From Christensenellales bacterium (GTDB taxonomy: Bacteria; Bacillota; Clostridia; Christensenellales; UBA1242): a DNA stretch of 36,802 nucleotides. The DNA lies in contig JBJEXU010000121.1 of assembly GCA_051886095.1 (NCBI GenBank), positions 1 through 36,802 of the forward strand. The letters are read 5' to 3'. Every line of letters starts with the position of its first letter. The stretch's first letter is position 1. The position numbers and the translations under genes are program-made. Positions 1,823 to 36,146 of this stretch are shown here, piece after piece. The notes beneath the pieces were generated by a model. That model worked only from the letters and a program-made list of their open reading frames with translations, made no database searches and had not been told where the DNA came from.

Positions 1823-3175
1823 TTATTTGCCAACGCAGAACTTGCTAAATATATCGTCAATAATCTTTTCGTTGTCTGAATTTCCTGTAATGTCGCCTAA
1901 GGCTAACCAAATATTTTTAATATCGATAGAAATTAAATCGAGATTGTTGTTGCCGTGCAGACTTAATAGAGCCTGTTTTAAATATTCTAGTGCTTTAGTT
2001 ATTGCATTTATGTGTCGTGTATTTGTTAAAACTACAGCGTTATTATTTATATTTTTGTGTGTAACAAATTTTAGTAAAGTTTCTTTAAGGGCATCTATGT
2101 TTTCACCAGTTAAAGTTGATATTTCCAGTACCTTTTTAAATGGTAAATTGTCAATATTAACTCGTTTAATCAAATCGGACTTATTGACAATAAGTATCGT
2201 ATTATTGTTATTTAATTCGGACATAATGTCATAATCTTCTTTAGCAAGAGGTTCAGAACCATCGATAATATATAGAACAATGTCGGCTGATTTCAGCATA
2301 GATTTAGATTTGTTTATCCCTATGTTTTCTACTAAATTATCAGAATTTCTAATACCAGCACTATCAATTAAAATAAACTTAAATCCTTTGTAAGTAAAGG
2401 TTTCTTCAAGTAGGTCTCTTGTTGTTCCTTGAATGTTGGTAACTATTGCTCGTTCATAATTAAGTAGACTATTAAGTAGGCTAGATTTACCTGCATTTGT
2501 TTTGCCGTAAATTAAAACTTTTACACCATCTTTGATACATTTACCATATGATGCGGTATCAAGTATTGAATTAAGTTTTTCTTGTACAAGCGATAAAGTA
2601 TTTTCAATATTTTCTATAGTTTCTTCTTCTAAGTCTTCTTCGGGATAATCAAGAGTAACTTCGATTTTGGCAAGTAGTTCTGTTAAGGTATCTTGTAATA
2701 TAGAAATCTCATTTTTTAATTTACCTTGTAATAAATCATATCCTGCTTTTAATTCACTATCACTTTCAGCGTTTATAATATCAATAATTCCCTCTGCTTC
2801 GTCTAGAGATAACTTTCCGTTTAAAAATGCAAGTTTGGAAAATTCGCCTTTAGTTGCAACATCACAACCAAGTTCCACAAGGCTTTCAAAAATTCTATTA
2901 GTTAATGTTATTCCACCGTGACAATGAAATTCAATTAAATCTTCGCCAGTATAGGAATTAGGTGCTTTGAAATAGACGCACATACATTTATCGCAAATGC
3001 CTTTATATTCAAATTTGCCAAGATACATTTTTCTAGGCTCAAAATCTTTAACTTCCAAATGATTTGTATGAAAAACTTGAGAGGCAATGTCTAATACAGA
3101 TTTACCACTCATTCTTATTATTGATATTCCACCATTTCCAATGGCTGTTGAAATGGCTACAATATTTCTTTCCAT
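1823..3175 (-). CDS. mnmE: tRNA modification GTPase MnmE
   Basis: 450 aa. G-domain motifs GKTNAGKSSLLN, DSAGIR and NKSD. Diagnostic C-terminal FCVGK (CxGK) tail. Confidence 0.93.
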   Translation of the reverse strand: MERNIVAISTAIGNGGISIIRMSGKSVLDIASQVFHTNHLEVKDFEPRKMYLGKFEYKGICDKCMCVYFKAPNSYTGEDLIEFHCHGGITLTNRIFESLVELGCDVATKGEFSKLAFLNGKLSLDEAEGIIDIINAESDSELKAGYDLLQGKLKNEISILQDTLTELLAKIEVTLDYPEEDLEEETIENIENTLSLVQEKLNSILDTASYGKCIKDGVKVLIYGKTNAGKSSLLNSLLNYERAIVTNIQGTTRDLLEETFTYKGFKFILIDSAGIRNSDNLVENIGINKSKSMLKSADIVLYIIDGSEPLAKEDYDIMSELNNNNTILIVNKSDLIKRVNIDNLPFKKVLEISTLTGENIDALKETLLKFVTHKNINNNAVVLTNTRHINAITKALEYLKQALLSLHGNNNLDLISIDIKNIWLALGDITGNSDNEKIIDDIFSKFCVGK

Positions 3176-5223: not shown

Positions 5224-7116
5224 ATGGAAAATATTAACGAACAAATTTATTTATTTCATCAAGGTACATATTATCACGCTTATGAACTACTTGGCTGTCA
5301 CCCATACACCAAAGGTGATAAGACTGGGTATGTATTCCGCACTTGGGCACCTAATGCAACTAAAATTAGTGTAGTAGGTGATTTTAACGGCTGGAATAAC
5401 ACTTTGAATCCTATGAAAAGAATAAGCGAAGATGGCGTATGGGAAGCATTTATTCCTAATGTAAAAGAATTTCAGATGTACAAATATGAAATTACCGATA
5501 AAAATAATTATGCTAGACTTAAGGCCGACCCCTATGCTTTTATGCAGGAAACTAATGGGAAAACAGCTTCAATGGTATATGATATTGAAGGATATAATTG
5601 GCAAGATGAGGGTTATTTAAAACACCGTAAAACTAAAAACAATTATACTAGTCCTATGAATATATATGAGGTTAATTTCTGTTCGTGGAAAAAACAATCC
5701 GATTGCAGTTACTATACATACAAAATGCTAGCGGACGAACTAGTGCCTTATGTTGTTGATATGGGATATACACATATTGAGATAATGCCTATTACCGAAT
5801 ACCCTTATGATGGTAGTTGGGGTTATCAAGTAACGGGATATTTTGCGCCATCAAGTAGATTTGGCTGTCCTAAAGACTTTATGTATTTTGTAGACAAATG
5901 TCACGAAAATGGAATTTCAGTTATTATAGATTGGGTTCCTGCACATTTTCCTAAAGACGCACACGGACTAATAGAATATGACGGCGAGTGCTTGTATGAA
6001 AATCAAGGCTGGGATAGGAAGGAACATAAATCTTGGGGAACTAGAAGATTTGACTATGGCAGAAGCGAGGTTCAGAGTTTCCTTATTTCTTCGGCAATGT
6101 TATTCCTTGATAAATATCATATAGATGGAATTAGGGTTGATGCGGTTGCTTCTATGCTTTATCTAGATTATGACAAGCGTCCGGGTGAATGGATACCTAA
6201 TGTTTATGGCGAAAATAAAAACCTTGAAGCAGTTGCATTTTTGCAAAAACTAAATGCAAGTATTTTTAAAGAATTTCCGAATGTTCTAATGATAGCAGAA
6301 GAAAGCACCGCTTGGCCAATGGTAACTAAACCTGCACATTTGGGAGGTTTGGGATTTAATTTCAAATGGAATATTGGTTGGATGAATGATACTTTAGAAT
6401 ATGTAAAAACTGACCCATATTTCCGTAAGTCTATTCATAACAAACTTACATTTTCGATGTTCTATGCATTTAGCGAAAACTTTATCTTGCCTATATCTCA
6501 CGATGAGGTTGTGTATGGTAAATGTTCGTTGCTAAATAAAATGTTTGGCGAGTATAACGATAAATTTAAATCTATGCGTGCATACCTAAGTTATATGATG
6601 GCTCACCCTGGAAAAAAACTTACCTTTATGGGCACTGAATTTGCACAATTTAAGGAATGGGATTATCAGGCGGGAATAGATTTCTGCCTACTTGACTTTG
6701 AAACTCACAACAATATGTTTAAATTTGTAAAAGCACTAAATCATTTTTATTTAGAAAGACCGGAACTTTTTGAAGAGGACTTTTCTTGGAAGGGTTTTGA
6801 TTGGTTAGTTCCTGATGATAATAATCAGAATGTGCTTGTATTTAGAAGAATGGATAAATCGGGAAATGAACTTATTTATGCAGTTAATTTTTCTGCAGTG
6901 ACAAGAGAGAACTATAGTTTTGGCGTAAATGCTAAAGAATATGAAGAGGTATTATCAACCGATTGGAAGGAATTTGGTGGAAGCGGTATAACCAATGGTA
7001 AAGTTACTGCAGTTAAAGAAAATTATCGAGGAAAGAATTATAAATTAACAATTACAATCCCTGCACTTAGCGGAGTGTTCCTAAGTAGAAAAACTAAAGA
7101 TCTAAGGATAGATTAA
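5224..7116 (+). CDS. glgB: 1,4-alpha-glucan branching enzyme (GH13)
   Basis: 630 aa. Conserved regions DWVPAHF, GIRVDAVASM, MIAEEST and ISHDEVV. SD GGAGA lies 5 nt upstream. Confidence 0.93.
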   Translation: MENINEQIYLFHQGTYYHAYELLGCHPYTKGDKTGYVFRTWAPNATKISVVGDFNGWNNTLNPMKRISEDGVWEAFIPNVKEFQMYKYEITDKNNYARLKADPYAFMQETNGKTASMVYDIEGYNWQDEGYLKHRKTKNNYTSPMNIYEVNFCSWKKQSDCSYYTYKMLADELVPYVVDMGYTHIEIMPITEYPYDGSWGYQVTGYFAPSSRFGCPKDFMYFVDKCHENGISVIIDWVPAHFPKDAHGLIEYDGECLYENQGWDRKEHKSWGTRRFDYGRSEVQSFLISSAMLFLDKYHIDGIRVDAVASMLYLDYDKRPGEWIPNVYGENKNLEAVAFLQKLNASIFKEFPNVLMIAEESTAWPMVTKPAHLGGLGFNFKWNIGWMNDTLEYVKTDPYFRKSIHNKLTFSMFYAFSENFILPISHDEVVYGKCSLLNKMFGEYNDKFKSMRAYLSYMMAHPGKKLTFMGTEFAQFKEWDYQAGIDFCLLDFETHNNMFKFVKALNHFYLERPELFEEDFSWKGFDWLVPDDNNQNVLVFRRMDKSGNELIYAVNFSAVTRENYSFGVNAKEYEEVLSTDWKEFGGSGITNGKVTAVKENYRGKNYKLTITIPALSGVFLSRKTKDLRID

Positions 7117-16806: not shown

Positions 16807-16882
16807 TGGTGACCCCGCCGGGACTCGAACCCAGAACAAAGCCTTAGGAGGGCTCCGTAATATCCAGTTTTACTACGAGGTC
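16807..16882 (-). tRNA. tRNA-Arg (anticodon CCT)
   Basis: Hand-folded 76-nt cloverleaf on the minus strand: GACCTCG-TA-GTAA-AACTGGATA-TTAC-G-GAGCC-CTCCTAA-GGCTT-TGTT-CTGGG-TTCGAGT-CCCGG-CGGGGTC-A-CCA. It has a 7-bp acceptor stem, GG in the D-loop, a TTCGAGT T-loop and an encoded CCA. Confidence 0.88.
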
Positions 16883-23784: not shown

Positions 23785-24603
23785 TTAGAAAAAGGACAAT
23801 ACAACTAGGATTGTGGATAAGGCGATAAGATAATATGAGAAGTATATAAGTTTATTCTTGTTAACAAGATTTGTCATAAGTTTAATACATAATATTCCAA
23901 TAATTGTGCATATAAGCATAGCAACGAGTAATGCAAAAATATTTATATTAAAGGTGCCTAAATTATCATCAAATATTTCCATTAAAAAACTTGCTATAAT
24001 TATAGGAATAGATATAAGAAAACTGTATCTTGTTGTATCTTCTGCTTTACACATTCGCCCTACTGCAATAGTGCTACCACTTCTACTAATTCCAGGAATA
24101 CAAGCGATGCCTTGAGTGAGTCCAATAATGATTGCTTGCTTATAACTAACTCCGATATTGGTGATAGTTGTGTCGATTTTACGCATGGTTTCTGACTTAA
24201 AATATGTAGTTCTTGACAATAATTGATTTTTTTCTGACAAATAATCACTAATACATAACAAGACGGCGGTTATTAAAAAGAACGCAAAAATATATTCACC
24301 ACTGAAAGTTTTGTCTATAATTGGTTTTAAAATTAGTACCACCAAACAAGTACATAAAGTAGTTACAATTATCTTTCTATTTGTTGGACAAAGCGGGTGC
24401 TTTATTAATTGTATAATTTCTTTCCTATAATATATAAGCACAGATAGAAGTGTTGCAATATGTAAAAGTATGCTAAGTAGTTTAACATTATTGTCAATGC
24501 CGAAAAAATTATAAAGAAGCACCAAATGCCCGCTACTGCTAATCGGCAAAAATTCGGTTAGTCCTTGAATTGTGGCAAGTAGTAATAGTATCCAAAAATT
24601 CAT
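23785..24603 (-). CDS. uppP: Undecaprenyl-diphosphate phosphatase
   Basis: 272 aa. N-terminal QGLTEFLPISSSGHL and the GISRSGSTI motif are characteristic of UppP/BacA. SD GGAGGGAG is 3 nt upstream of the ATG. Confidence 0.92.
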   Translation of the reverse strand: MNFWILLLLATIQGLTEFLPISSSGHLVLLYNFFGIDNNVKLLSILLHIATLLSVLIYYRKEIIQLIKHPLCPTNRKIIVTTLCTCLVVLILKPIIDKTFSGEYIFAFFLITAVLLCISDYLSEKNQLLSRTTYFKSETMRKIDTTITNIGVSYKQAIIIGLTQGIACIPGISRSGSTIAVGRMCKAEDTTRYSFLISIPIIIASFLMEIFDDNLGTFNINIFALLVAMLICTIIGILCIKLMTNLVNKNKLIYFSYYLIALSTILVVLSFF

Positions 24604-24612
24604 TATCTCCCT

Positions 24613-24740
24613 CCTTTAAAGCATATATGCCACGCAATACTGCGTTACTGCCGATTATTTAGACTGGTCATTTATATTAATAAACTCCCAGCCTAAACAA
24701 CTCGTCGAGCCTTGTCTTGCTTGCATCTATGCTTTAAAGG
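24613..24740. repeat. Imperfect palindromic element, copy A (128 bp)
   Basis: Basal arms CCTTTAAAGCATATATGC / GCATCTATGCTTTAAAGG (17/18 complementary). Apical arms TTTAGACTGG (24658-24667) / CCAGCCTAAA (24688-24697). It is GC-enriched relative to its flanks. The mismatches are G:U-compatible only on the minus strand. Confidence 0.85.
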
Positions 24741-24757
24741 GAGCAAGAGAAAGCAAG

Positions 24758-24868
24758 TGCTACGCAATACTGCGTTACTGTCGATTATTTAGACTAGTCA
24801 TTTATACTAATAAACTCCCAGCCTAAATACTCGTCGAGCCTTGTCTTGCTTGCATCTATGATTTAAAG
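24758..24868. repeat. Imperfect palindromic element, copy B (tandem with A, 130-bp period, lacks the left basal arm)
   Basis: Hand alignment to 24628-24739 gives 6 substitutions plus 1 indel over ~112 nt. Confidence 0.85.
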
Positions 24869-24985
24869 AAAAACAACTTATGTTACTAGTAGATTAAATT
24901 GTCTGGCATAATGCAAGAAATAGTATTAATACCTATTCTATGTGTGAAGATTTAATAATATTTCTATTAAGTAATTAAAAAAGAC

Positions 24986-25041: not shown

Positions 25042-26136
25042 ATGAAAGTAGGAATTGTTGGTCTACCAAATGTTGGCAAGAGTACTTTATTTAATGCATT
25101 AACTAAACAAAATATACCAAGTGAGAATTATCCTTTCTGTACTATAGAGCCTAATATGGCTATAGTTGGAGTTCCAGATAATAGATTAGATGTTCTAGGC
25201 AAAATGTACAATACTAAGAAAATCACCCCAGCAATATTGGAAGTTGTGGATATTGCAGGACTTGTAAAAGGTGCTTCTAAAGGAGAGGGACTTGGCAATA
25301 AGTTCCTAAGTCATATAAGAGAAGTTGACGCAATTATTCACGTAGTTAGATGTTTTGAGAATTCTAAGATTATTCACGTGGAGGGGTCGATTGACCCAGT
25401 AAGAGATGTGGAAGAAATTAACTTAGAATTAATCTTAAGTGATTTGGAGAGTGTTACTAAAAGACTTGAGAAATCTCAGAAATCACTTAGAAATGGTGAT
25501 AAGAAATTAATTGCTGAGGTGGACTTGCTTAACAAATTAAAAGGTGTACTTGAAGGTGAGAAGCCTGTTAGAAGTTATCCAGCAAGTGAAGAGGAAAAGG
25601 AACTAATTAAAGGGTTCTTCTTAATTACAAGCAAGCCGGTAATATATTGTGCTAATATTTCGGAAATTTCGACAACTAATGCAAACGAAAGTGAGAATGT
25701 TAATAAACTTAAAAGTTTAGCTGAGAAAGAAAATTCAGAGGTTATCGTTGTTTCTGCGAAAATGGAAGAAGAATTATGCCTGCTTGATGACGACGAAAAG
25801 GAATTATTTAAAGAAGAACTAGGAATTACAAGTTTTGGTCTTGATAAACTTGTAGTTGCTGGATACAAAGCGCTTGGACTTATATCTTATTTAACCGCAG
25901 GAGAACAAGAGTGTAGGGCTTGGACGATTGTAAACGGTACCAAAGCACCTCAAGCAGCAGGTAAAATCCATACCGATTTTGAAAAAGGTTTCATTAAAGC
26001 GGAAGTAGTGTCTTACGAAGAACTTGTAGAACTTGGTAGTTATAATCTTGCAAAAGAAAAAGGTCTTGTGCGAATTGAGGGCAAAGATTATGTGGTGAAA
26101 GATGGGGATGTGGTTTATTTCCGCTTCAACGTCTGA
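25042..26136 (+). CDS. ychF: Ribosome-binding ATPase YchF
   Basis: 364 aa. G1 GLPNVGKSTLFNALT and the C-terminal TGS region RAWTIVNGTKAPQAAGKIHTDFEKGFI. SD AGGAG is upstream. Confidence 0.95.
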   Translation: MKVGIVGLPNVGKSTLFNALTKQNIPSENYPFCTIEPNMAIVGVPDNRLDVLGKMYNTKKITPAILEVVDIAGLVKGASKGEGLGNKFLSHIREVDAIIHVVRCFENSKIIHVEGSIDPVRDVEEINLELILSDLESVTKRLEKSQKSLRNGDKKLIAEVDLLNKLKGVLEGEKPVRSYPASEEEKELIKGFFLITSKPVIYCANISEISTTNANESENVNKLKSLAEKENSEVIVVSAKMEEELCLLDDDEKELFKEELGITSFGLDKLVVAGYKALGLISYLTAGEQECRAWTIVNGTKAPQAAGKIHTDFEKGFIKAEVVSYEELVELGSYNLAKEKGLVRIEGKDYVVKDGDVVYFRFNV

Positions 26137-26262
26137 TTTTCATTTATATACTTCGTCTAACTTCGTTTCTGCTTGAGTTATATAGACTAGTCATTTATAG
26201 ATAATAAACTCCTAGCCTATATAATCAAGCGAGCCTTGTTATACTCGTATCTAAATGAAAAT
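26136..26262. repeat. Imperfect palindromic element, copy C (127 bp)
   Basis: Basal arms ATTTTCATTTATATAC / GTATCTAAATGAAAAT. Apical arms TATAGACTAG / CTAGCCTATA. The conserved core GACTAGTCATTTATA...AATAAACTCC is shared with A and B, and the orientation is the same. It starts on the last base of the ychF stop codon. Confidence 0.85.
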
Positions 26263-26289
26263 TAGTTGATATAACGACTGAGGCTTATC

Positions 26290-26313
26290 GCGATTGCCGA
26301 GCCTTGTCTTGCT
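26290..26313. repeat. Truncated derivative D of the palindromic element
   Basis: GCGATTGCCGAGCCTTGTCTTGCT. The last 16 nt (CGAGCCTTGTCTTGCT) are identical to 24706-24721 of copy A. The first part resembles the copy A left arm GCGTTACTGCCGA. It looks like copy A with the apex deleted. Confidence 0.55.
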
Positions 26314-26511
26314 AGAAACTAATCAATCAGAAAGTGGATATAAGTTATATTCGGTATTTAAATGATTATTTGGTATTACGACCGAATGGTTGAAAGTGTT
26401 ATATGAAAAATCAGTCGATATAATGACTGAAAGAAATTGATTATTATCGATATAAATGAAAATTTTAGTAATATGTTTTTCTAATGAGCGGTTAGTAAAA
26501 TAAAAAGCCGA

Positions 26512-34447: not shown

Positions 34448-34786
34448 ATGCTACAAGAAAAAAATAGGCTTAGGAAACGCAAAGAGTTTGCCTATCTTTA
34501 CAATAACGGAACAGCCAAGCATACTGCTAACTTGACAGTTGTTTACTTACCTACTAAACATAGAGTGCTTAAAATAGGATTTTCCATTTCTAAAAAAATT
34601 GGTAAAGCACATACTCGTAATCTTATCAAGCGTAGACTTAGAGCAATCGTAAGAGAATTGGTACCTAATCTACCAAACGATTATAATATTGTAGTAATTG
34701 CCAAAGTCGGGGTTGAGAAATTGACTTTTGCTGAACTTAAAACACAAACAGAATTAGTTTTTAGAAAAACGGGGTTACTAAAATAA
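34448..34786 (+). CDS. rnpA: Ribonuclease P protein component
   Basis: 112 aa, basic, with an RNR-type motif (NLIKRRLRAI). It sits immediately after rpmH. Confidence 0.88.
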   Translation: MLQEKNRLRKRKEFAYLYNNGTAKHTANLTVVYLPTKHRVLKIGFSISKKIGKAHTRNLIKRRLRAIVRELVPNLPNDYNIVVIAKVGVEKLTFAELKTQTELVFRKTGLLK

Positions 34787-35067
34787 TGTGGGTTAAAGTA
34801 ACGATTGAAGCATTATTTTATCCATTTAAAGCAGGTCTTATTGTGCTTATCTGGTTATATAAAAAACTGATTAGCCCAATGTTTCCCAAAACCTGTAGGT
34901 TCTATCCGACCTGTTCTGAATATATGCTTATTGCTATTAATGAATGGGGACTTTTTAAGGGGCTGGTTTTAGGTATTAAAAGAATATGCAGATGCCGACC
35001 AAATGGAAAATGTGGGGAAGATTTTGTTCCGCTTAATATTAAAGGAGATTTAAAATGGATTTTTTAG
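34786..35067 (+). CDS. yidD: Membrane protein insertion efficiency factor YidD
   Basis: YKKLISPMFPKTCRFYPTCSEYMLIAINEWGLFKGLVLGIKRICRCRP matches the YidD signature. TAATG overlap with rnpA. Confidence 0.88.
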   Translation: MWVKVTIEALFYPFKAGLIVLIWLYKKLISPMFPKTCRFYPTCSEYMLIAINEWGLFKGLVLGIKRICRCRPNGKCGEDFVPLNIKGDLKWIF

Positions 35068-36146
35068 CCATTACACTTACAAAGCCGACTGGCCTTTGGG
35101 AGAGTATCATTTTTGGAATGGAAAACTCTCTTAGAGATTATGCATTGGCTTTAATTATTGTAACAATACTTATTAAACTTGTTATGGTTCCTTTTGACTT
35201 TGTGAATAAGTATTCTTCTAAGAAGAGTGCTAGAAAGCAAGCAGAGATGAAACCCGAACTTGACAAGGTTAATGCTAAGTATGCTAATGACAAAAATATG
35301 CTTAATCAGAAAACTATGGAGGTTTACAAGTCTCACAACTACAATGTTATGGGCACTTGTGTAGGAATGCTTGTTTATTTAGTATTCACAATGGTGGTTT
35401 TCTGGACACTATTTGCTTCATTGAATAAGATTTCTTACTATAAGATAGGCGACCAGTTCTTACAAGTTAGAAGAGAATACTTTGCCTCATATAGTATAGA
35501 TGTAGACGCGTTAGGAGACGAGACAACAGCCCTAGACGAATATAATCTTGTAATAAAAGACTTAACAGAGGAACAATTAGTTGAGTTTAAAGCAAGTGCA
35601 GAAACTAATGCTAATGCTAAATATCAGGAAACTAAAACGGGTTTCTTATGGATTGAGAATATATGGCTTGCAGATAGTACAACTAATCCAGTAATGAAAT
35701 ATTCCGACTTTATCAAGAAGAGTGGAATTAGCGAGAGCCAAATTACTGAAGCAGAATATAACTTAATTATGGAGCCTATTAAGACAGGCGAAAGAAAGAA
35801 TAACGGATATTTTGTTTTAGCAGTTCTTGCTGCAGGACTTAACTTCCTTTCTATGCAAGTTAATACTTGGGTATCTAAGAGAAAAGCAAAGAAGCAGGGT
35901 ATAGACCCAGCACTTATGACCAATACGGGTTCTAATAAATTGATGTCAATTATTATGCCAGTAATTATGGGTGTCTTCACATTATTCTATAACGCTGCAT
36001 TTGGTCTATATATCGTAGCAGGTGCATTAATAACCTTAATTACTAGTCCGTTAGTTACAATGTTTGTAGATATATTAGAGGTCGAGGCAATTAAGAAAGA
36101 GCAGAATAGAAATGTTGCAATATACGATAGAAAAAGAAGGAAATAA
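35055..36146 (+). CDS. yidC: Membrane protein insertase YidC
   Basis: 363 aa. Contains the LIKLVMVPFDFVNKYSSKKSARKQAEMKPELDKVNAKY and EVYKSHNYNVMG segments typical of YidC/Oxa1. It overlaps yidD by 13 nt and has a basic C-terminal tail. Confidence 0.9.
   Translation: MDFLAITLTKPTGLWESIIFGMENSLRDYALALIIVTILIKLVMVPFDFVNKYSSKKSARKQAEMKPELDKVNAKYANDKNMLNQKTMEVYKSHNYNVMGTCVGMLVYLVFTMVVFWTLFASLNKISYYKIGDQFLQVRREYFASYSIDVDALGDETTALDEYNLVIKDLTEEQLVEFKASAETNANAKYQETKTGFLWIENIWLADSTTNPVMKYSDFIKKSGISESQITEAEYNLIMEPIKTGERKNNGYFVLAVLAAGLNFLSMQVNTWVSKRKAKKQGIDPALMTNTGSNKLMSIIMPVIMGVFTLFYNAAFGLYIVAGALITLITSPLVTMFVDILEVEAIKKEQNRNVAIYDRKRRK

Follow-up and report, generated by a model that had tools for sequence, protein, structure and literature searches.

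Probable ERIC-type miniature mobile elements beside uppP and ychF in a Christensenellales bacterium

ERIC elements and the repeats around uppP and ychF

ERIC elements (enterobacterial repetitive intergenic consensus, 127 bp), also called IRU or RU-1, have been in use for genotyping for 35 years, and we know of no transposase for them. Copies that overlap or lie next to stop codons reportedly favor one orientation. Here we compare with ERIC three repeated elements (copies A, B and C) and a fragment (D) that lie between the divergent genes uppP and ychF and directly behind ychF on positions 1 to 36,802 of contig JBJEXU010000121.1 (assembly GCA_051886095.1) of a Christensenellales bacterium; this whole stretch of DNA is called the window below. 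Described ERIC copies have terminal inverted repeats and TA termini and duplicate their target (PMC2229807 Table 1; PMC3184786), and the hosts named in reviews are Enterobacteriaceae and Vibrionaceae only (PMC10969869; PMC11602168). In the account that PMC2229807 and PMC10969869 give of De Gregorio et al. 2005, ERIC destabilizes the upstream transcript in an orientation-dependent manner by ribosome-dependent exposure of an RNase E site. The analysis makes it very probable that A, B and C are ERIC-type miniature mobile elements, that is, non-autonomous imperfect palindromes of ~130 bp that encode no protein and are copied by an enzyme acting in trans, and D is probably an ERIC-type copy as well. 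A preliminary description of the region had offered the repeats as a candidate structured RNA or new palindrome family without a recognized name; the view of a new family had to be given up since significant matches to a described repeat were obtained. To judge from the literature searched, the novelty lies in the host range and in an apical hairpin common across phyla, with tip, core, geometry, strand asymmetry and stop-codon habit all conserved.

Two covariance models were used. R1 was built from 23 copies from Bacteroidota and Clostridia only, taken from the genome scan described below and including no enterobacterial sequence. R2 was built from ERIC copies only, from E. coli, Klebsiella, Salmonella and Rahnella. 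The elements of the window and their conserved parts are as follows.

About 24612-24740, plus strand: copy A, probable full-length ERIC-family element forming a rod hairpin, 129 nt (R2 and R1 matches, fold)
24758-24868 (feature span 24741..24872), plus strand: copy B, head-to-tail second copy, truncated at the 5' end (R2 and R1 matches)
About 26133-26266, plus strand: copy C, full-length element, 132-134 nt (R2 and R1 matches, fold)
About 26262-26330, plus strand: fragment D, tentative core-only "mini" derivative (shared 16-mer, nhmmer match)
24667..24688, plus strand: apical hairpin ("tip") of A, GTCA-TTTAT-loop-ATAAA-CTCC; the motif is repeated in B (24797-24818) and C (26190-26212)
24640..24648, plus strand: 5' core motif CTGCGTTAC, from alignments; the ERIC counterpart is CTGCGTT
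24706..24721, plus strand: 3' core motif CGAGCCTTGTCTTGCT; the ERIC counterpart is (T/C)CGCCTT(C/G)CTGCAAC
24835-24850, 26230-26245 (3 mismatches) and 26298-26313 (in D): further sites of the 3' core motif

The three to four copies in 36.8 kb are all intergenic. Each copy is composed of a basal helix formed by both ends, an asymmetric internal core (CTGCGTTA opposite GAGCCTTGTC), an apical helix that is free to vary and the conserved apical hairpin GTCA-[5 bp]-loop-[5 bp]-CTCC. Read on the minus strand, the tip is GGAG-UUUAU-loop-AUAAA-UGAC, which gives a G-C pair, tandem G.A/A.G and a G.U pair. A and B are direct repeats at a spacing of 130 nt with 94% identity over 70 nt and an identical 24-mer in common, and C has the same orientation. 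The basal helix of A (24613-24630/24723-24740, 18 nt) is 94% complementary and that of C (26133-26151/26247-26265, 19 nt), which is unlike A's in sequence, is 89% complementary. B has no left basal arm and carries a filler of ~18 nt (GGAGCAAGAGAAAGCAAG) in its place. At both ends of A a TA is found inside TTTAAA (24617-24618 and 24735-24736), whereas the 3' end of C is TTA and its 5' end covers the ychF stop codon TGA at 26134-26136. The 3' core 16-mer CGAGCCTTGTCTTGCT has three exact occurrences in the window and five at ≤3 mismatches, against 0.05 expected. One of them lies in D, where the core GCGATTGCCGAGCCTTGTCTTGCT is flanked by the short terminal repeat TTAGTT/AACTAA and there is no apical hairpin; D is supported by this exact 16-mer, common to A and B, and by an nhmmer match (26295-26323, E 0.0017), and neither R1 nor R2 matched it.

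Much of this layout had been set out in the preliminary description and was borne out, namely the head-to-tail arrangement of A and B with C as a third copy in the same orientation, the long rod hairpins with an 18-nt basal helix in A, and basal helices of A and C that differ in sequence while both stay complementary. The apical helix and the TTTAT/ATAAA terminal stem, with minus-strand loops TAAT, TAGT and TATCT, can likewise be read in the sequence, as can the A24663 opposite C24692 that recurs in all three copies. A has G-C at 24666/24689 where B has A.C (G.U when read on the minus strand) and C has A-T; at 24659/24696 A has T-A, compared with A-T at 26182/26220 in C, again as described. 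The label "GC-enriched" is right for A (G+C 0.40) and B (0.38) and wrong for C (0.29), compared with 0.31 for the whole window.

The ERIC-only model R2 matched A with 52 bits (E 4.3e-11) over model positions 1-127, C with 34.4 bits (E 1.6e-6) and B (24754-24857) with 28.6 bits (E 5e-5); its next best match in the window was the reverse strand of A with 16 bits. R1, which scored 85.4 bits on A, 65.6 bits on B (24745-24868) and 66 bits on C, in turn found 9 of 12 ERIC loci of E. coli, Klebsiella, Salmonella and Rahnella at full length with 24-37.5 bits, and aligned end to end (28.5 bits, E 1.6e-5) with an ERIC copy that lies between ybhI and ybhJ in E. coli. On Bacteroidota copies R2 reached up to 78 bits (E 5e-17) and on a Thermoanaerobacterales copy 29 bits, and it had no match in Neisseria. 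A structure-free signature derived from ERIC, GTCAYWTA-N5-9-TAWRCTCC-N15-25-GCCTT, gave three exact matches in the window compared with none in 100 shuffles and also occurs in seven ERIC loci. The lead toward ERIC was the core of the ERIC-PCR primers, GGAG-CTTAC-ATAA-GTAAG-TGAC, which equals the tip motif of the window with two compensated pairs.

The likeness is not limited to these reciprocal covariance-model matches. ERIC elements and the window copies are single long imperfect-palindrome hairpins of ~127-133 nt with the same apical hairpin (GTCA-CTTAC-TTAT-GTAAG-CTCC in the E. coli ERIC form), a 5'-side CTGCGTT and, 15-25 nt past the tip, GCCTT. Both are intergenic and multi-copy and fold better on the same strand, TA is seen at the ends of ERIC and of A, and ERIC has in common with the wider family that it frequently overlaps the stop codon of an upstream gene in one orientation. 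They differ in that the window copies reside in an uncultured member of the Clostridia at 31% G+C and have helix sequences that are all different and AT-rich; the tip stem is TTTAT/ATAAA in the window and CTTAC/GTAAG in ERIC.

Fold, strand and orientation across phyla

Relatives were collected by scanning one genome per species with the apical hairpin pattern GTCATTTATA-N1-4-AATAAACTCC. Of the 41 loci obtained, ~32 had the whole architecture around the tip match, in the order CTGCGTTAyGC, arbitrary helix arm, tip, complementary arm, CAAGCCTTG and complementary ends. Hosts were Brumimicrobium, Saprospiraceae, Bacteroidales, Helicobacter, Campylobacter, several Gammaproteobacteria, Thermoanaerobacterales and Christensenella. 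R1 recovered 40 full-length copies from the genome loci, including copies that had not been selected by their tip, and 44 further copies from 62 metagenome loci. About 90 relatives were recovered in all, from Bacteroidota, Campylobacterota, Gammaproteobacteria, Thermoanaerobacterales and Clostridia. Because loci were fetched by exact tip match, tip invariance within them is by construction and the independent evidence lies in the extra copies and ERIC, where the tip stem has the compensatory variants TCTAT/ATAGA, TTTAC/GTAAA, CTTAT/ATAAG, CTTAC/GTAAG and CATAC/GTATG.

Several forms recur in the family. Head-to-tail pairs with a 5'-truncated second copy are found in the loci L019, L022, L032 and L017 as in the A-B pair of the window, and core-only mini forms in L046 and L004:2430-2498 as in D. 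Two Clostridia relatives (L045:4569-4698 and L049:5057-5187) hold an element with the family ends and core and another apical hairpin, directly after dnaA and with the dnaA stop codon inside the basal helix; the apical domain appears to be exchangeable. A 5' TA is nearly universal. At many loci from Bacteroidota (L033:7185-7210, L054, L084 and L025 among them) the hairpin is followed by a conserved stretch of ~20 nt (TTTATGGACAGACACTAWTT), and since this tail is an inverted copy of the element 5' end (TAGTGTCTGTCC) there are two candidate right ends in those copies. In L040 a cobalamin riboswitch (L040:5890-6246; RF00174 match of 39.6 bits with a 168-nt insert where the model has 14) has the element (6001-6129) inserted into the terminal loop of one of its peripheral hairpins, and the riboswitch sense strand is the strongly folding strand of the element.

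Folding of A gave -38.3 kcal/mol on the plus strand and -53.7 kcal/mol on the minus strand (z-scores -6.2 and -9.3), and C gave -40 and -48 kcal/mol (z-scores -8.0 and -9.7); none of 200 shuffles folded as well as A or C. The sense that corresponds to the minus strand of the window folded better in all 40 copies of the genome loci, in all 44 copies of the metagenome loci and in nine of nine enterobacterial ERIC copies. When the tip was swapped for a neutral loop, the minus strand was still better in 83 of 86 unique copies, with a mean difference of -9.2 kcal/mol. The RNAalifold consensus energy was -75.2 for the minus strand versus -52.5 for the plus strand.

Pairing in the family is kept by compensatory change across phyla. 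In the metagenome set 45 of 52 pairs were changed on both sides, and the covariation score of 0.333 compares with at most 0.078 when partners were slid by 1-3 columns; none of 500 shuffles reached 0.333. A.C mismatches, which are G.U on the minus strand, outnumbered G.T mismatches by 237:58 and 170:73. Three A.C columns are fixed, and without these the ratio was 139:57 for alignment A5 (metagenome set) and 85:69 for alignment A4 (genome set). The compensatory changes noted earlier in the window copies were thus found again among relatives, and the covariation check on aligned copies that had been proposed was positive. The argument from strand-asymmetric wobbles to selection on a minus-strand fold, be it of RNA or of single-stranded DNA, is valid for the whole family and not for the window copies alone. 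The conclusion that the repeats are not a simple decaying duplication also stands; they belong to an interspersed extragenic palindrome family.

The orientation of the elements was tabulated relative to genes and replication, as had also been proposed. In ~17 of the 40 copies of the genome set and ~19 of the 44 copies of the metagenome set, the element has the stop codon of a same-strand upstream open reading frame (ORF) among its first few bases; for 12 Bacteroidota copies of the genome set this codon, TAG or TAA, falls on identical model positions (3-5). A convergent ORF has its stop codon at the opposite end in only one of 84 copies. The upstream genes at abutting copies are unrelated housekeeping genes. 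Copy C on the ychF stop codon fits the pattern, and so do the annotated ERIC copies after ybhI and two Rahnella genes. GC skew relative to element orientation was positive in 25 cases and negative in 30, which rules out the replication strand as the cause; since orientation is independent of GC skew, it is tied to the neighboring gene and not to replication. The mRNA of an abutting upstream gene contains the weaker-folding strand of the element. The orientation bias at stop codons may be due either to targeting or to selection against a near-perfect hairpin at a stop codon.

These regularities bear on the way the element moves, a question of mechanism that does not touch its ERIC identity. One possibility, which we consider rather unlikely, is that it moves as a single strand whose tip and fixed mismatches are recognized by a single-strand-specific enzyme (of the HUH/Y1 type, as in REP/RAYT and IS200/IS605, or through an RNA route) instead of as a DDE-driven MITE (miniature inverted-repeat transposable element). 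This would agree with arbitrary-sequence helices that stay paired across phyla, with the strand asymmetry in 84 of 84 copies, and in 83 of 86 without the tip, and with the three conserved A.C positions. The tip-to-end arms have a constant length of 52-57 nt, the terminal sequences vary between lineages while tip and core are the conserved parts, 5'-truncated head-to-tail copies recur, and orientation relative to the abutting gene is strict, all of which point the same way. However, the TA at both ends of most copies and the published target duplication of ERIC fit a TA-duplicating DDE enzyme (IS630-like), the absence of orientation bias with respect to GC skew is unlike IS200/IS605, no candidate enzyme was found next to any copy, and the excess of A.C over G.T is modest outside the three fixed columns. 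Tentatively, the family including ERIC could be seen as a cross-phylum single-strand hairpin family in which the apical hairpin (GGAG...UGAC with tandem G.A) is the docking site of a horizontally spread mobilization enzyme that places the element directly on stop codons and in a fixed orientation, unlike DDE-driven MITEs; we regard this proposal as doubtful.

The better folding of the minus strand everywhere and the conserved tip might also be expected if each copy encoded a small RNA that acts in trans, is made from the minus strand and has the tip for its functional part. We consider this very unlikely, as no conserved promoter or terminator accompanies the element, its ends and helices vary freely, copies occur on stop codons, in 5' leaders and inside a riboswitch loop, and presence or absence differs between close relatives.

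Other described repeats

Among other small repeats, the Correia element of Neisseria (CREE/NEMIS) is similar in architecture, with terminal repeats, an asymmetric core, an optional internal segment and mini forms. It is also a small TA-flanked hairpin MITE that occurs in full, internally deleted and mini versions, has a core like GCGTT...GCCTTGTC and lacks a known transposase, and its core GCGTTGCCTCGCCTTGTCCTG resembles GCGATTGCCGAGCCTTGTCTTG of D at 19 of 22 positions. Genuine Correia copies were obtained for comparison. Neither R1 nor R2 found a match in 40 kb holding five Correia copies, and hidden Markov models (HMMs) in both directions and blastn-short stayed at noise level. The Correia element further differs in its 26-bp conserved terminal repeats (TATAGTGGATTAA...), and its copies are not full-length rods and have no strand asymmetry. 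With covariance models, HMMs and BLAST all negative, membership of the Correia family was rejected, and any relationship is highly improbable. The PLSDB entries NZ_CP119140.1, NZ_CP119142.1 and CP125156.1, a source of the Correia and ERIC copies used here, are entire chromosomes (N. gonorrhoeae, 2.17 Mb; K. pneumoniae, 5.37 Mb) filed as plasmids, which is a trap for plasmid statistics.

REP and REPIN sequences resemble the window elements as extragenic palindromes near gene 3' ends with the hairpin as the replicating unit and plausible single-strand recognition. However, REPs are 20-40 nt long and tagged with GTAG or CGTC, and REPINs consist of two REP units in inverted orientation, whereas the window element is a single 130-nt hairpin with a conserved tip and core and no such end tag. 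Its halves are not self-palindromic, no RAYT gene lies nearby and there is no recurrent neighbor protein, so it was not assigned to REP/REPIN. RUP of Streptococcus pneumoniae, a 107-bp MITE related to IS630-Spn1, is similar in being a Gram-positive, TA-targeting and hairpin-forming element, and is a model for trans-mobilization by a TA-duplicating transposase (PMC2229807). By description it differs in that RUP ends match a known insertion sequence (IS), while no IS with matching ends is known for the window family.

Other identities were also rejected. By reading of the sequences, integron attC sites (conserved R''/R' core sites RYYYAAC/GTTRRRY at the hairpin base, variable tip, cassette arrays) do not fit because conservation is at the tip and not at the base, there are no core sites and the flanks are housekeeping genes. 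Readings of the tip as a dif site, IHF site, promoter or attC site gave no match to the usual consensus sequences, and the tip stem covaries. Judged from the sequences, a small minus-strand ORF starting at the ATG of the tip would have 4-16 codons with nothing conserved past Met-Thr.

Insertion beside uppP and ychF and its possible effects

The genes flanking the copies, the promoter-like site between them and a further repeat behind C are located as follows.

23785..24603, minus strand: uppP (BacA); Pfam BacA, 4e-58
25042..26136, plus strand: ychF; ORF, Pfam YchF-GTPase_C and MMR_HSR1
24920..24948, minus strand: promoter-like site TTCACA-17-TACTAT, from a consensus scan alone
26450..26463, plus strand: 14-nt perfect complement of the left arm of C (26136-26149); inverted repeat I14, 100% complementary

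An exact look-up of the window YchF returned no record, and its closest relatives are found in metagenome-assembled genomes of Clostridia/Clostridiales. Two of these loci, L043 and L044 (YchF 94% and 93% identical), keep the same divergent uppP-ychF arrangement with spacers of 193 and 234 nt, compared with 438 nt in the window. No model matched these spacers, and in L044 there is no element after ychF. Since the spacers are element-free in the closest relatives, A, B and C are inserted elements and not a conserved leader. An RNA gene of uppP, one way to read the candidate structured RNA of the preliminary description, is not supported either. It is extremely improbable that A and B are a dedicated cis-regulatory uppP leader, like a tandem riboswitch or attenuator, with C as an unrelated paralogue: the strong fold, the promoter-like site upstream and the end of A inside the uppP Shine-Dalgarno sequence on the minus strand would suit such a leader, but it is absent from these two relatives, the same element lies beside ~90 unrelated genes in several phyla, and no Rfam family matches it. 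The Rfam search, which had been suggested earlier, gave no match in the element region with Rfam 15 at the gathering threshold or at E up to 10, and no element match in 18 related loci and a Bacteroidota copy.

Several observations weigh against the assignment of the copies to ERIC-type mobile elements. A sequence-only HMM of nine ERIC copies had no match in the window, so that the ERIC link rests on structure-aware models and short motifs, which limits the evidence but does not refute the link, and the structure line of R2 was inherited from R1 via alignment even though its sequences are from ERIC only. The reported ERIC hosts, Enterobacteriaceae and Vibrionaceae, exclude Clostridia; the Clostridia copies are treated here as an extension of the host range and not as excluded from ERIC, because the list of hosts describes an element without defining how it works. 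None of the window copies had an alignable empty site, and no TA duplication was seen; for A/B and C precise alignment failed because the L043 and L044 spacers are too diverged beyond the ychF-proximal promoter region. A 3' TA is present in only ~60% of the family copies. Finally, promoter-like sites are no more frequent in the region than in shuffles, and the uppP promoter is no more than a match to the consensus.

No transposase, reverse transcriptase or recombinase is present among the window genes, and the rest of the window holds housekeeping genes (mnmE, glycogen operon, metG, ftsH, rnpA, yidC). There was also no conserved neighbor protein (transposase, TnpB, reverse transcriptase) at the relatives, as all-against-all BLAST of flanking ORFs gave one trivial pair. 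A blastn search of A+B against plasmids and phages and a search of the tip pattern against viral contigs gave no match, and a literature text search for the literal tip sequence returned unrelated matches only. The element would be copied in trans by an enzyme encoded elsewhere that recognizes tip and core. By extension from the family, it would insert at TA, in many cases exactly on a gene's stop codon and with one orientation, and a protein may bind the apical hairpin and core on a single-stranded form.

Effects on the host would be an RNA-level by-product, by analogy with ERIC in Yersinia. At C the hairpin lies directly after the ychF stop codon in the usual orientation of the family, and ribosomes might there modulate folding and RNase E access, as proposed for ERIC. 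The uppP ribosome-binding site lies on one side of A and B and the candidate promoter on the other. The uppP Shine-Dalgarno sequence (reverse complement of 24606-24616, AAAGGAGGGAG) overlaps the end of the A basal helix. If the promoter at 24948-24920 is used, the 5' leader of uppP would include B and A, both in their strongly folding sense, as two strong hairpins (-54 and -43 kcal/mol), the first of which, with the A basal helix, is predicted to end in the first bases of the Shine-Dalgarno sequence AAAGGAGG.

More repeat debris follows C (window 26262-26470), including D, the 14-nt complement and a second copy of the D left arm at ~26407-26431, which lies within a terminator-like hairpin on the minus strand. 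The 14-nt complement is found 186 nt past the right arm of C itself and may be what is left of one end of an older or nested copy. In L044 the spacer downstream of ychF (L044:3075-3360), which has no counterpart of C, contains an AT-rich tandem-like repeat with units resembling ATACTTTAAAGATAAAT. GC skew is positive over the whole window (1-36802), the origin-proximal genes mnmE (1823-3175, minus strand), rnpA (34448-34786) and yidC (35055-36146) lie in it, and in relatives dnaA lies ~6 kb upstream of ychF; the window is probably close to the replication origin, on the leading strand. A tRNA gene (16810-16882, minus strand) is the sole Rfam match of the window at the gathering threshold.

With ERIC-type elements in Clostridia, Thermoanaerobacterales, Bacteroidota and Campylobacterota, the "enterobacterial" label of ERIC is too narrow. 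The constrained parts of the element are now defined as tip, core and pairing, and not the ends, with every helix rewritten. In annotation, such hairpins by stop codons or in leaders should be labeled mobile repeats and not candidate riboswitches. The element itself is ordinary; it is the conservation across phyla that provides a handle on the mobilization mechanism, as the mobilizing factor becomes findable through gene families that co-occur with the element across distant hosts.

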